Shown: positions 22,802-27,459, numbered from the stretch's first letter. The stretch: DNA of 64,000 bases from a virus (IMGVR_UViG_3300002092_001784:160001-224000), one strand, 5' to 3'. Notes: generated by a model from the sequence alone, not told the origin. Made by a program: numbers and translations.

Positions 22802-22857
22802 TTAACAATTTTTTAACATTGAAAGCTTGGATTTTCCAAGCTTTTTTTGTATCTTTA
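22802..22857 (+). promoter_or_regulatory. TTAACA-N5-TTAACA box + Bacteroidota sigma70 promoter
   Basis: TTAACA 22802/22813, CTTG 22826-22829, 20-nt spacer, TATCTTTA 22850-22857. Confidence 0.78.
22822..22848 (+). terminator. intrinsic terminator embedded in promoter
   Basis: AAAGCTTGGA-ttt-TCCAAGCTTT plus T-run. Confidence 0.65.
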
Positions 22858-22899
22858 AGTATTGATTTGAGAGAGATATTAACCACAAAAATAAAAGTT

Positions 22900-23100: not shown

Positions 23101-23116
23101 TATTGGTCATAACGAT

Positions 23117-23172
23117 TTAACAATTTCTTAACATTAAAAATTTGGAAATCGTTAATAAATGTGTTATATTTG
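23117..23172 (+). promoter_or_regulatory. TTAACA-N5-TTAACA box + Bacteroidota sigma70 promoter
   Basis: TTAACA 23117/23128, TTTG 23141-23144, 20-nt spacer, TATATTTG 23165-23172. Confidence 0.8.
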
Positions 23173-23214
23173 AATATCAGTTTGAGAGTTGTTAATCACT
23201 AAAAATTTTGAGTT

Positions 23215-23587: not shown

Positions 23588-23632
23588 AAAAAGAAATCTA
23601 TCAATGTATTACTAACTTTAATTAGAAACAAA

Positions 23633-23794
23633 ATGGATAAAGAGAACAAAATTGCGGAAAACCCAAAAACAGGCAATGATTTTATAGCCGATGTTAGTAG
23701 TATGTTAGTTGCTAACGGACTACCTGCTTTTGGTACAAAAGAATTTAATTATATGTGTAGTCAGTTTTTTGGTGGAAACCCTAAAAGCAACTAA
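23633..23794 (+). CDS. cassette-fusion peptide (53 aa) reading across an attC-like right arm
   Basis: MDKENKIAENPKTGNDFIAD-V-SSMLVANG...PKSN*; GAT GTT at the putative crossover. Confidence 0.5.
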   Translation: MDKENKIAENPKTGNDFIADVSSMLVANGLPAFGTKEFNYMCSQFFGGNPKSN

Positions 23795-23805
23795 TTAGTG
23801 CTAAC
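23693..23805. mobile_element. putative gene cassette with self-complementary ends
   Basis: GTTAGTAGTATGTTAGTTGCT (23693-23713) vs reverse complement of AGCAACTAATTAGTGCTAAC (23786-23805). Confidence 0.5.
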
Positions 23806-23829
23806 GATTGTAAATAAAAAAATAAAAAT

Positions 23830-24033
23830 ATGATTAAAGAACTTAAAATTGGGGACAAGGTTAAACTTGAAGGTTATGATGAAGCTTGGATAGGGTGGGT
23901 TACAAATTCTTCATATCAAATTAGTAAGATAAAAAGTAGGTTTGATGAAAACGGTAAAATATCAGTAGGTTGGTTGCTGAAGAATTTGGAAGTGCGTTGG
24001 GTTTCAAAGGAGGAGTGGCACTATAAAAATTAA
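23830..24033 (+). CDS. hypothetical protein (putative cassette gene)
   Basis: Flanked by GCTAACG (23800) and CATATAACG (24039) left-arm motifs. Confidence 0.65.
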   Translation: MIKELKIGDKVKLEGYDEAWIGWVTNSSYQISKIKSRFDENGKISVGWLLKNLEVRWVSKEEWHYKN

Positions 24034-24038
24034 TATTT

Positions 24039-24170
24039 CATATAACGGTCACAGATATATGTAGTTTTTCTTAAATTGAAACATAAAACTTAAATAAAAA
24101 TGGAAGAAGTAAATAAGAACACAGAAGTTGATAACACGGATAAAAAATTACATATATCTGATGTTATATG
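24039..24170. repeat. attC-like imperfect inverted repeat (132 bp)
   Basis: CATATAAC-ggtca-CAGATATATGTAGTTTTT ... AAAAAATTACATATATCTG-at-GTTATATG. Confidence 0.7.
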
Positions 24171-24333
24171 CAGTGTTTGTGGAGGAAAAAATATCCAAAT
24201 CACAGAACACAAAAAGATAACTGGGCCACCCGCAGGAACAAAAAGAAATCCACATAGAAAAACGACTTATGGATATTTTTTTAAGAGATATACTTGTGAA
24301 TGCGGCAGTGTGTGGGAAGAAAAGGAAAGTTAG
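24100..24333 (+). CDS. zinc-ribbon protein whose N-terminus is encoded in the attC-like loop
   Basis: MEEVNKNTEVDNTDKKLHISD-V-ICSVCGG...CECG. Confidence 0.7.
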   Translation: MEEVNKNTEVDNTDKKLHISDVICSVCGGKNIQITEHKKITGPPAGTKRNPHRKTTYGYFFKRYTCECGSVWEEKES

Positions 24334-24357
24334 TGTGATTGGAACATTGTATATAAC
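24163..24357. mobile_element. putative gene cassette with self-complementary ends
   Basis: GTTATATGCAGTGTT (24163-24177) vs AACATTGTATATAAC (24343-24357): 13/15 complementary. Confidence 0.55.
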
Positions 24358-24678: not shown

Positions 24679-24720
24679 GTATTTACAGCGAATACCTAAA
24701 TCAGAATGTCCATTTGATTC

Positions 24721-24776
24721 TTAACAATTTCTTAACATTAAAAATTTGGAAAGCTAAATTAAAAATAGTACCTTTA
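24721..24776 (+). promoter_or_regulatory. TTAACA-N5-TTAACA box + Bacteroidota sigma70 promoter
   Basis: TTAACA 24721/24732, TTTG 24745-24748, 20-nt spacer, TACCTTTA 24769-24776. Confidence 0.78.
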
Positions 24777-24817
24777 GGTATTGATTTGAGAGAGTTATTA
24801 ATTTTAATTTTGTTATT

Positions 24818-25115: not shown

Positions 25116-26009
25116 ATGAATTTAGGATATGCTTGCATAAATATGACAATGGGTAAAACGGTTACTACCAATCGTTCAATGGTTAAACGTACATTCAATC
25201 TAAGGGGACTGGATTATGTTTCCGAACTTACACTACTCAATGCAAAAGATATTATTAAAATATTGCAATGGAATCTTAAAAATAGTATTAAATTTTTCCG
25301 ATTATCATCTGCCATTGTACCGTGGGGTGATAAGTTAGATTTAACACAACTAAAAGATTACAAACAAATTTCGGATGCACTTAAAAAAGCCGGTGATTTC
25401 GCAACTCAAAACGATATTCGTATCACATCGCACCCCGGTCCGTTTGTAGTGCTTGTTTCACCAAACGAAACAGTTGTTGACAACGCAATCGCAGATTTGG
25501 AAATGCACGGTAAAATATTCGATATGATGGGGTTATCCAAATCAGTTTACAATAAGATTAATATCCATTGTAACGGTGTTTACGGAGATAAGTTATCAGC
25601 AATGGATAGATTCTGCACTAACTACCAAAGGTTATCAGAATCGGTTAAAACACGTCTTACTATTGAGAATGATGATAAAGCATCAATGTATTCTGTGGCA
25701 GACCTTATGTATATCCACAATAAAATAAAAATCCCTATTGTGTTTGATTATCACCATCACCAATTCTGTACCGGTGATTTATCAGAAGAGGCAGCATTAT
25801 CACTTGCTGTTTCAACGTGGCCGGACGGTATCACACCTGTTGTTCACTATTCAGAAAGTAAATCATCACACGAAAACAATACAAAGTTAAAACCACAAGC
25901 ACATTCAGATTATATCAAATCATTACCAAACACCTACGGTAATTCAGTTTCGATTATGGTGGAAGCAAAAGCTAAAGAACTTGCAATATTACCGTTTATA
26001 AAAAAATAA
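25116..26009 (+). CDS. uvsE: UV DNA damage endonuclease (UvsE/UVDE)
   Basis: LGYACIN, FFRLSS, HPG, TIENDD, FDYHHH, HYSES, QAHSD, VEAKAKE. Confidence 0.95.
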   Translation: MNLGYACINMTMGKTVTTNRSMVKRTFNLRGLDYVSELTLLNAKDIIKILQWNLKNSIKFFRLSSAIVPWGDKLDLTQLKDYKQISDALKKAGDFATQNDIRITSHPGPFVVLVSPNETVVDNAIADLEMHGKIFDMMGLSKSVYNKINIHCNGVYGDKLSAMDRFCTNYQRLSESVKTRLTIENDDKASMYSVADLMYIHNKIKIPIVFDYHHHQFCTGDLSEEAALSLAVSTWPDGITPVVHYSESKSSHENNTKLKPQAHSDYIKSLPNTYGNSVSIMVEAKAKELAILPFIKK

Positions 26010-26012
26010 ATT

Positions 26013-26210
26013 ATGAGTAAAAAAATAAAATATAGTGTTGATTGTTATATTCCTGGACAACATCATAGTAATATAATAGAATGTAGAGAAATGGCAATAT
26101 ATGGAGGGGCATATACTTTTTGGGATTGTGAATATGGTGAAACAAATAGACTAATAGCCTCGTACCCGATAATGTTTACGATTATTGAAAATACGGAAAC
26201 CGATGAATAA
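26013..26210 (+). CDS. hypothetical protein
   Basis: ORF track. Confidence 0.6.
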   Translation: MSKKIKYSVDCYIPGQHHSNIIECREMAIYGGAYTFWDCEYGETNRLIASYPIMFTIIENTETDE

Positions 26211-27459
26211 TTTAGATAAAAAATACACCGATTTACTTCAAGATATTTTGGATAACGGTGTTAAAAAAGAAGATAGAACTGGTACTGGTACTATATCAGT
26301 GTTTGGAAGACAAATAAGGCATAAAATGTCTGAAGGATTTCCTTTGCTAACTACCAAAAAGATGTATTTCAAAGGTATTGTAACCGAACTACTATGGTTT
26401 TTGCGTGGAGATACAAATATTGAGTATTTGGTTCATAATGATTGTCACATATGGGATGGGGATGCCTATAAGAGATACGTTAAAGAAAATCAATTTAACT
26501 CAAATGCAAAATGGTTGAAACCTGTACTGTTAGAAAATGGACATTATGGAGCAGATTTATATACAAAAGAAGAATTTATCAACAAAATAAAAACCGATAA
26601 TGAATTTGCTGAGGAATGGGGAGAACTTGGACCAGTGTATGGGAAGCAATGGCGAAAATGGGAAAGGTATGGTCATAGGGGGGTTCAGAATGGAGCATTG
26701 GACTGTGGATTTATTACCCAAGAAGATGTCGATAAAGAAATGTATATAGATCAAATCGCAACCCTAATCAACGACCTTAAAACAAATCCCGATAGCAGAA
26801 GATTGATGGTTAATAGCTGGAACGTAGGTGAAATTGACCAAATGGTTTTACCACCATGTCATTACGGATTTCAATGTTACACTAGAGAGTTGAGTCACAA
26901 AGAAAGGTGTGATTTATTTGGACATAATGATGATCCAAACCGAAAAGACTCTTATTCCAAATGGTTGGATGATAACGGATTTCCGAAAAGAGCTATCTCT
27001 TTAATGTGGAATCAACGTTCAGTAGATACACCATTGGGACTTCCATTCAATATAGCATCTTATGGGTTACTACTTACTATGATTGCCGATGAAGTTAATA
27101 TGGTGACTGATGAAGTTATTGGTAATTTAGGGGATTGTCACATATACCTTAACCAAATCGAAGGTGTTAAAGAACAAATTGGACGTGAATTTACATTAGA
27201 AGAACGAATTGATATGGCATCTAAATGTAACGGTTTTGACCCGTTTGATTTTGGTATTGGAGAACATAGAACTAACGCAATTCAAAAATATCATGACCAT
27301 GAAGTTTGTGATGCTTATGAAGTTCCCCGACGAACAAGAGAACCATATCCATTACCAACCGTTAAAGTTCAAGATGGTATAGAGTGTTCATCTATTAATG
27401 ATGTAATATTATTGGATTATAAATCACATCCAACAATTAAATTTCCTTTAAGCAACTAA
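26203..27459 (+). CDS. thyA: thymidylate synthase (with family-variable insertions)
   Basis: DRTGTGT, ELLWFLRG, GELGPVYGKQWR, SRR, LPPCH, QRSVD, GLPFN; ATG 26203. Confidence 0.95.
   Translation: MNNLDKKYTDLLQDILDNGVKKEDRTGTGTISVFGRQIRHKMSEGFPLLTTKKMYFKGIVTELLWFLRGDTNIEYLVHNDCHIWDGDAYKRYVKENQFNSNAKWLKPVLLENGHYGADLYTKEEFINKIKTDNEFAEEWGELGPVYGKQWRKWERYGHRGVQNGALDCGFITQEDVDKEMYIDQIATLINDLKTNPDSRRLMVNSWNVGEIDQMVLPPCHYGFQCYTRELSHKERCDLFGHNDDPNRKDSYSKWLDDNGFPKRAISLMWNQRSVDTPLGLPFNIASYGLLLTMIADEVNMVTDEVIGNLGDCHIYLNQIEGVKEQIGREFTLEERIDMASKCNGFDPFDFGIGEHRTNAIQKYHDHEVCDAYEVPRRTREPYPLPTVKVQDGIECSSINDVILLDYKSHPTIKFPLSN

Follow-up and report, generated by a model that had tools for sequence, protein, structure and literature searches.

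Two small open reading frames (ORFs) in a phage genome raise the question of whether a recombination site can also serve as the 5′ end of a gene. Both lie on the plus strand of a 64,000-nucleotide (nt) stretch of DNA, hereafter called the window, which corresponds to bases 160001 to 224000 of the IMG/VR phage record IMGVR_UViG_3300002092_001784 (266,153 base pairs (bp), 34% G+C). ORF1 (23633-23794) encodes 53 amino acids (aa) and joins a leader termed E0 (residues 1-20) in frame with a 32-residue cassette protein, and ORF2 (24100-24333, 77 aa) joins a 21-residue leader termed E2 in frame with a 55-residue zinc-ribbon-like cassette protein. A first-pass annotation of the window had noted that the two frames cross a putative crossover point in the same codon phase, and this is borne out by the coordinates. 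The ORF1 leader, MDKENKIAENPKTGNDFIAD followed by V, reads across GAT (23690-23692) and GTT (23693-23695), with 20 residues before the valine, and the ORF2 leader, MEEVNKNTEVDNTDKKLHISD followed by V, reads across GAT (24160-24162) and GTT (24163-24165), with 21 residues before the valine. The junction phase is identical in both.

Our answer, which we consider probable, is that both ORFs belong to an integron-like system of gene cassettes carried by Bacteroidota phages, in which the recombination sites donate leaders and the units are moved by a recombinase. The evidence for this explanation consists of the anatomy of the sites, the in-frame fusions, the re-assortment of leaders and cassettes, and the linkage of cassette arrays to one family of recombinases. 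The window itself is a decayed remnant of such a system that lacks a recombinase and retains, as orphan copies, one truncated and one intact leader site.

The intact site precedes ORF2. Its leader module E2 is complete (24047-24162, plus strand) and comprises the spacer GGTCA, a left stem arm L″ (24052-24069), a loop of 73 nt, a right stem arm L′ (24143-24160) and the spacer AT. The outer box R″ (CATATAAC, 24039-24046) stands immediately before the 5-nt spacer, and its counterpart R′ (GTTATATG, 24163-24170) stands immediately after the 2-nt spacer, for a total site length of 132 bp. The two L arms of 18 nt each are 94% complementary and form a bulged hairpin, and the site folds on both strands (z -2.2 and -2.7). 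In the 266-kilobase (kb) genome, this is the sole plus-strand site of strict geometry near this locus, and shuffled genomes yield 0 to 2 such sites each. The loop holds an A-rich stretch and the ATG of ORF2 at 24100. The earlier proposal that both ORFs start inside a loop or right arm is correct for ORF2, whereas for ORF1 a start in the loop holds only by homology with complete copies elsewhere.

The body of cassette 2 (24163-24357, plus strand) begins with an R′ sequence, GTTATATGCAGT, that pairs with an R″ sequence, ATTGTATATAAC, ending at 24357. The two match at 9 of 10 positions, and the complete end stem is 12 bp long when two G·T pairs are counted, including the G·T at position 11 that is conserved in the family. 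A homologue of cassette 2 occurs in the 642-kb megaphage LR756502 with an ATG of its own and with neither a leader nor boxes. This homologue begins MKIN-CPIC at the point where the window has ..HISDVI-CSVC, and therefore the ORF2 leader stands in for the native start.

The site in front of ORF1 is truncated at its 5′ end. This E0 copy (23612-23692, plus strand) retains an A-rich untranslated stretch, the ATG at 23633, the 20-codon leader, the right stem arm L′ (ATAGCCG, 23684-23690) and the spacer AT (23691-23692). It covers only positions 50 to 137 of an nhmmer profile of ~138 positions, and all that belongs to the left arm is missing, namely the 5-nt spacer, L″ (CGGCTAT) and the inner hairpin. 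Cassette 1 (23693-23805, plus strand) extends from R′ GTTAGTAGTA (23693-23702) to R″ TAGTGCTAAC (23796-23805), which lies 11 nt past the stop codon. Its geometry fits the family, and its ends are inverse complements at 8 of 10 positions, compared to 6.6 of 10 when the ends of other cassettes are used as the control. Full-length homologues of ORF1 form 15 clusters (70-83% identity), in which the protein sequence of the cassette part is strongly conserved and leader residues 2 through 14 are free to vary. The region from 23612 to 23707 also shares 81% DNA identity with the 5′ end of gene gp8 of Cellulophaga phage phi17:1, and the remainders of the two proteins are unrelated. A tblastn search of phage records with ORF1 missed the phi17:1 leader because it is too short.

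Sites of this family share a common anatomy. Each unit carries, in order, a ..TAAC box, a 5-nt spacer, L″, the loop, L′, a 2-nt spacer, a GTTA.. box and the cassette body, and the two spacers have exactly these lengths in 68 and 63 of 80 sites, respectively. The AAC and GTT sequences are invariant, and TAAC and GTTA are usual; many cores fit RYYYAAC and GTTRRRY (GCCTAAC and GTTAGGC), and others deviate in the R/Y pattern. A cassette starts at GTT and ends at AAC, at or just past the stop codon, with the TAA of TAAC often being the stop itself. Its first 10 to 14 nt are the inverse complement of its own last 10 to 14 nt. Among 41 units chosen by the leader alone, 27 have perfect matches between R′ and R″ (10/10) and 36 match at 9 or more positions, and 28 different versions of the inner 6 nt (‘barcodes’) occur among the 41 E0 units. 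Perfect terminal-repeat pairs number 102, compared to 21-31 in shuffles. Cassette starts match their own ends at 9.7 of 10 positions and the end of the preceding cassette at 5.5 of 10. This pairing with the own end is the classical signature of an integron cassette.

Pairing in the R stem extends beyond the near-invariant G·T at position 11. There are 43 distinct L stems, which enclose loops of 11 to about 180 nt, and L stems that pair perfectly over 7 bp or more are found at 44% of cassette starts versus 2.6% of control GTT sequences. Wobble pairs are strongly biased when the sense strand is considered, as evident by counts for G·T versus A·C of 89 versus 10 in R stems and 92 versus 28 in L stems.

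The same two leaders recur in other phages on different proteins. Leader 1 (..GNDFIADV) is present in about 48 phage or metagenome-assembled genome (MAG) contigs. A degenerate DNA pattern for GNDFIADV identifies 38 IMG/VR loci, and the exact 21-mer of this leader adds 10 genuine copies from MAG or isolate contigs, which are mostly from Bacteroidota or are mis-binned phage contigs. Homology among otherwise unrelated contigs is limited to the interval between about -125 and +1 relative to the junction. Reading frames remain open for at least 25 codons beyond the junction in 40 of the 41 complete E0 units. E0 cargo includes N6/N4 and C5 DNA methyltransferases as well as NUMOD4/HNH endonucleases, and in an E0-fused methyltransferase the Pfam domain begins at profile position 1, about 18 residues past the leader. 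The genes that co-occur at E0 loci are only common phage genes (helicase, portal, terminase), and no recombinase is present in these small contigs. A search with the right arm of site 2 finds leader 2 (..KKLHISDV) in 22 IMG/VR contigs, mostly of 50-325 kb. Starting at the loop ATG, E2 frames continue without a stop beyond the junction in 21 of 23 copies, and the other two end at a contig edge. The E2 cassettes follow the same end rule as E0 cassettes, and RNAalifold recovers the L stem from 18 E2 copies.

It had been suggested from the window alone that shuffling would create in-frame N-terminal fusions. This prediction holds, since the 25 non-redundant scored copies of E0 are joined to 23 distinct and unrelated cassette clusters, E2 leaders (of the form M..NKNTE.DNTDKKLHISDV) are joined to at least 15 unrelated C-termini, and one cassette, C0, is found with two leaders. 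Neither E0 nor E2 is always joined to the same downstream domain. The regular expression [LF]x[IV][SA]DV that the first-pass annotation offered as a leader signature proved unsuitable: FIADV does not fit it, and running that expression on the whole genome returned only ORF2 and chance matches.

Seven other matches to the 21-mer, five of them flavobacterial chromosomal and two others, were rejected as unrelated genes that happen to encode NDFIADV. Chromosomal contigs from five genera of Flavobacteriia (L044, L045, L050, L054 and L057) share an identical 98-codon frame that contains ..ILNDFIADVVKGKG.. and the exact leader 1 21-mer. This frame is without the site architecture and may represent a conserved or mobile gene that has no relation to the cassettes.

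Cassette C0 (172 nt, ~92% identical) illustrates how leaders and cassettes are combined. It resides behind E0 in contigs L007, L013 and L048, in L008 it follows a 52-residue leader of unrelated sequence, and the homology begins within ..TAGCCGATG/TTAGG (here and below, a slash within a sequence marks a breakpoint). Therefore, leaders and cassettes have been re-paired at the GTT side. The L048 copy of the E0 site with C0 (L048:261-432) is in a 185-kb isolate scaffold of Aequorivita marina S2608. Units consisting of a site plus a cassette are also found as blocks amid unrelated flanks, with AAC/ at either side. Two breakpoints, GAT/GTT and AAC/, are thus in evidence, and the second is the one used in the recent move that is best resolved. 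This move involves a 960-nt block (a 916-nt cassette plus a 40-nt short-loop site) that is 99.9% identical at L087:583-1542, L100:2634-3593 and L101:5981-6940. This block is internal in L087, is the last unit, abutting the recombinase-side junction, in the near-identical phages L100 and L101, and has its right end exactly at AAC/. Exchange at the G/TT side is seen only as older re-assortment.

Cassette arrays are linked to a specific enzyme. Arrays bearing E0 and/or E2 in contigs of 265,845 bp and 108 kb end about 50 nt before a gene for a 267-aa tyrosine recombinase. The recombinases P0018 and P0019 (267 and 266 aa) match the models for XerA, IntI and XerC/D, all below the cut-off; the best model is of the XerA type, and the TIGR02249 match of 158 bits, against a cut-off of 265, falls in two stretches. 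Homologues with 57-81% identity are encoded at 54 IMG/VR loci. Wherever the locus includes 1.5 kb or more of upstream sequence (34 of 34 loci), cassettes are located upstream of the recombinase gene, at a density of 1.03 per kb compared to 0.08 per kb downstream. The last R″ AAC is positioned 44-61 nt before the recombinase gene at 30 of 38 loci and is followed by a conserved stretch, TATnATATATA, which is a candidate primary insertion site. Loci L083 through L129 (e.g. L083:2080-2880) carry arrays with up to 13 perfect-ended cassettes in 7 kb, followed by the recombinase gene. Of the 90 sites scored in arrays linked to the recombinase, 25 form in-frame leader fusions and have loops mostly of 60-100 nt, and 49 precede cassettes with their own start and have loops mostly of 11-50 nt (the other 16 are ambiguous). 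Only some of the sites therefore donate leaders.

A scheme for how these sites might function can be drawn from their sequences. In a subset of site families, a loop of 60-100 nt contains an A-rich initiation region, an ATG and a leader of 11-54 codons, which continues across L′ and GTT and enters a cassette lacking its own start. The site would supply translation initiation, and possibly a promoter as well. Ribosomes would load on the unstructured A-rich RNA and then unwind the arms. A start within the loop would suit Bacteroidota because initiation in these organisms occurs without a strong Shine-Dalgarno sequence. With regard to mobility, the sense strand would fold, and the short Xer-like tyrosine recombinase encoded at the end of the array would exchange units at AAC/. 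A rarer exchange at the L′/R′ junction (..G/TT) would re-pair leaders with cassettes to generate new N-terminal fusions. The strand and the chemistry of recombination, as well as the benefit of the leader, we infer from these features. We propose only tentatively the larger claim that Bacteroidota phages possess an integron-like platform of their own, whose folded sense-strand sites serve both as recombination substrates for an insert-less Xer-like recombinase and as portable promoter/start/leader modules, with exchange at the GTT side giving start-less segments an N-terminus. Such a platform would be a natural system for in-frame gene fusion and expression of captured fragments.

The alternative that fares best is that the stems are RNA elements involved in mRNA stability, processing or translation, and that shuffling is due to homologous or microhomology recombination, as proposed for the PeSL elements of T4 (PMC2839356 and PMC4122927). 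We regard this explanation as unlikely, even though it accommodates several observations. The wobble bias is on the sense strand, which is the RNA strand, and one-sided changes in E2 yield G·U pairs. Furthermore, modules are 85-90% identical over ~125 bp, which is sufficient for phage recombination, and many carriers, including this genome, are without a recombinase. Against it stand the close and position-dependent association with a single recombinase family (34 of 34 loci, with the 44-61-nt gap) and breakpoints that coincide exactly with AAC/ even with non-homologous flanks. The finding that cassette ends pair only with each other (9.7 of 10 versus 5.5 of 10 for the neighbor) is the known footprint of a circular stage. 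Moreover, RNA cleavage at the L stem would sever the leader from its cassette.

A different alternative concerns the leader itself, which might be a peptide signal such as a capsid-targeting or export tag, perhaps with a protease cut at ..AD/V, like the targeting sequence of T4 internal proteins. In T4, the hyperplastic internal-protein loci have in common a short targeting sequence at the N-terminus that ends in ..FIAE, which we treat only as a lead. The sharp border between a conserved leader and a variable body fits this view, as does a cargo mostly of small proteins with no known function. We nevertheless judge a peptide signal to be improbable, given the pattern of constraint on the leader codons. 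In complete E0 copies, the GNDFIA codons pair with upstream CGGCTAT..TTGCC in a two-part stem, of which they are the right arm. Codons 2 through 13 of the E0 leader have entropies of 0.81, 0.66 and 0.77 by codon position and thus exhibit no codon-position pattern, whereas codons 14 through 21, which pair with the left arm in the fold, are almost invariant at synonymous sites, as expected for selection at the level of DNA. Leaders of 30 distinct leader-donating site families range from 11 to 54 residues and are unrelated except for a hydrophobic-x-D-V end, which arises because L′, the spacer and GTT are read in phase 0.

All three reading phases are used among these families (24 in phase 0, five in phase 2 and one in phase 1), which also argues against a peptide signal. 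The ..DV phase was nonetheless predicted to be conserved across homologous sites, and this is true for all complete units (41 of 41 for E0 and 23 of 23 for E2) and for the 24 phase 0 families. The same leader is carried by cytoplasmic enzymes (DNA methyltransferases and an HNH endonuclease), and phi17:1 gp8 is annotated only as hypothetical. As judged from these sequences, the conserved ..I-[AS]-D-V is a by-product of DNA structure rather than a selected peptide. Consequently, of the first-pass proposal that the site provides both a start and a peptide tag to start-less cassettes, the first part is retained, with 40 of 41 frames open and the LR756502 homologue in agreement, and the tag is not, given the patternless codons 2-13 and the frozen codons 14-21.

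It is far less plausible that the units are non-autonomous single-strand transposons, IS200/IS605-like and mobilized by an HUH enzyme, that insert 3′ of TAAC and carry the leader incidentally. The presence of ..AAC on the left flank and at the unit end, the single-strand bias and the inner hairpin of E0, which is subterminal on the left, are reminiscent of such elements, but right ends carry no consistent similar hairpin and the L stems, with spans of 11-180 nt, are not compact terminal hairpins. In addition, the units reside in ordered head-to-tail arrays, and the linked enzyme is a tyrosine recombinase and not of the Y1/HUH type (HUH genes were not searched for). Finally, that the leader ORFs are chance open frames with true starts elsewhere is barely credible: the ORFs are short, have no Pfam match and lie in AT-rich DNA, but 40 of 41 E0 and 21 of 23 E2 frames are open past the junction, no in-frame ATG occurs right after it, and the cassette part of ORF1 is conserved as protein.

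Several observations weigh against a recombinase-moved cassette system with leader-donating sites. The truncated ORF1 site does not fold (z +0.46), and among the 18 E2 copies no compensatory pairs are present in the L stem because the search pattern held the right arm constant. Leader donors represent only about 28% (25 of 90) of the sites in recombinase-linked arrays. Use of the loop ATG as the start codon is inferred from sequence, and the putative promoter in the loop is proposed only on the basis of resemblance. Likewise, the clearest recent move keeps the site and leader with their own cassette, and new fusions, which are evolutionary rarities, could come from homologous or microhomology recombination. 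The length of the recombinase leaves no room for the IntI-specific insert, its score does not reach the integron-integrase cut-off, and the one published site of the family, P12002L_attC1, was not recombined by the class 1 integrase IntI1 (PMC9892861). No tyrosine recombinase is encoded in this genome, and several array carriers, such as phi17:1 and an 84-kb complete contig, likewise lack one; therefore, mobility must have been provided in trans, have occurred in the past or proceed by another route.

In the usual description, integron cassettes are promoterless genes that bring their own starts, and attC sites are non-coding. The phage sites resemble attC in having AAC and GTT cores, a second inverted repeat, an unpaired spacer, a variable loop and a length of ~130 bp (57-141 bp for attC). 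As in integrons, the first bases of a cassette complement its own distal core, and head-to-tail arrays rich in orphan DNA methyltransferases are located beside a tyrosine recombinase of the Xer/IntI clade. There are also clear differences. The phage recombinase is ~267 aa, insert-less and sub-cut-off, and its gene is co-oriented at the distal end of the array; the review PMC8618304 contains no account of integrons with an inverted integrase. The phage-site spacers are asymmetric (5 versus 2 nt), and core pairing covers 10-14 bp with a fixed G·T, unlike typical attC. The wobble bias points to the sense (top) strand, in contrast to attC, in which extrahelical bases mark the bottom strand as the recombinogenic one. 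An integron cassette is an ORF followed by attC with crossover at G/TT, whereas the phage unit is a site plus the downstream ORF, bounded by AAC/. Lastly, loops of phage sites, unlike those of attC, can hold a start codon and a leader.

Clusters of attC sites without an integrase (CALINs) have been predicted in virulent phages (Qi et al. 2023; PMC9892861), in a report that does not include the leader feature. The published P12002L_attC1 primer sequence has exactly the architecture described here, in its short-loop form, and this was the single site in that study that IntI1 failed to recombine. In the Polaribacter phage P12002L itself (L059, 29237-31120, minus strand), the methyltransferase genes gp35 through gp37 are located between ends of the GTTAGGCAC and GTTGGCAGTA types. 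The annotated start of gp35 is downstream of the GTT box, and the true start may have been mis-called.

A close relative of leader donation is found in the attI1 site of class 1 integrons, where, according to a review (PMC8876359, citing Hanau-Bercot et al.), a short ORF (ORF-11/ORF-18) spans the crossover and ORF-11 rescues expression of cassettes without a translation initiation region, which make up roughly 20% of all cassettes. Both ORF-11 and the phage leader are short ORFs with their own initiation region, inside the site and across the crossover. As described there, however, ORF-11 stops at the TAG within the incoming GTTAG core and acts by translational coupling. Phage sites instead read through GTT-AG. 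to fuse the leader, and every leader-type site does so rather than a single attI.

Among phages, the nearest precedent is PeSL of T4-type phages (PMC2839356, PMC4122927), in which an early promoter and an adjacent terminator-like stem-loop flank small accessory ORFs in hyperplastic regions. These reports describe PeSL as mobile regulatory cassettes for which modular shuffling, possibly through circles, has been proposed. They are described there as non-coding and are thought to move by homologous recombination, and they are without AAC and GTT boxes, terminal complementarity, a recombinase or a leader, whereas the phage stems examined here enclose a start codon and are partly coding.

Precedents also exist for recombination of folded DNA. 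In single-strand recombination by Xer at the attP site of CTX phage or at attC, a hairpin formed by one strand mimics a two-arm site with a bulged center. One strand exchange takes place and is followed by replication. In contrast to CTX attP, the phage sites are many, are arrayed and overlap coding sequence, and the use of folded DNA by their recombinase is putative. Our literature searches turned up no publication that describes leaders encoded by recombination sites or a phage platform built around this recombinase.

If the preferred explanation, an integron-like cassette system with leader-donating sites, is correct, one and the same sequence is a recombination site and the 5′ end of a gene, and therefore short conserved N-termini would recur on unrelated phage proteins and would be accompanied by frozen synonymous sites and mis-started gene calls. 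Coding fragments captured by phages, among them anti-restriction methyltransferases, could be expressed even when they bring no initiation signals of their own. Models of structure-specific recombination sites would have to take a coding constraint into account. As DNA motifs, the two leaders can serve as inexpensive metagenome markers for such cassettes, and the isolated phage-host pair of phi17:1 and Cellulophaga baltica, which carries one such cassette, could be used for direct tests.

An ORF with its own ATG lies between the two leader genes (23830-24033), and its unit extends to 24046 on the plus strand. The R″-type box CATATAAC (24039-24046) ends 13 nt past its stop codon, a spacing that is typical for the cassette family, and no matching R′/GTT box was found upstream of this ORF. 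The segment from 23830 to 24046 is probably a decayed cassette whose box acts as the left R arm of site 2, and the region from 23612 to 24357 may be a worn three-unit array. A scan of this genome for perfect 10-nt cassette ends gave 34 pairs, which is the background level, and therefore no large array is present. Neither the TATnATATATA junction nor a recombinase remnant was detected in the window or the genome by nhmmer and tblastn. Directly downstream of the cassette remnant (25116-27459) is a gene for a UvdE ultraviolet endonuclease (Pfam E 5e-67) together with a thymidylate-synthase-like ORF. A Pfam scan of ten small ORFs between 22.5 and 26 kb gave no match for ORF1 or ORF2, with UvdE being the only match nearby. 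Rfam covariance models had no relevant match at E≤1 at this locus or at the phi17:1 locus.

The cassette remnant is part of a series of small plus-strand ORFs (22.8-25.1 kb) flanked by repeated promoter boxes of Bacteroidota type. The ~70-nt box occurs at 22802-22873, 23117-23188 and 24723-24790 and has the form TTAACAATTT.TTAACATT.AAA..TTGGA ... TAT.TTTGA.TAT. Window DNA is present in freshwater metagenomes. In four freshwater DNA runs, three of which probably represent the source sample, no joints were seen at cassette boundaries, a result that is uninformative on excision; the only joints, whose sides were <60 nt, were at promoter boxes (22846-22870, 23110-23188 and 24717-24776). The layout of the ~70-nt box corresponds to the TTTG / TAnnTTTG promoter of Bacteroidota, copies of it occur genome-wide, and metagenome assemblies break at these promoter-like boxes.

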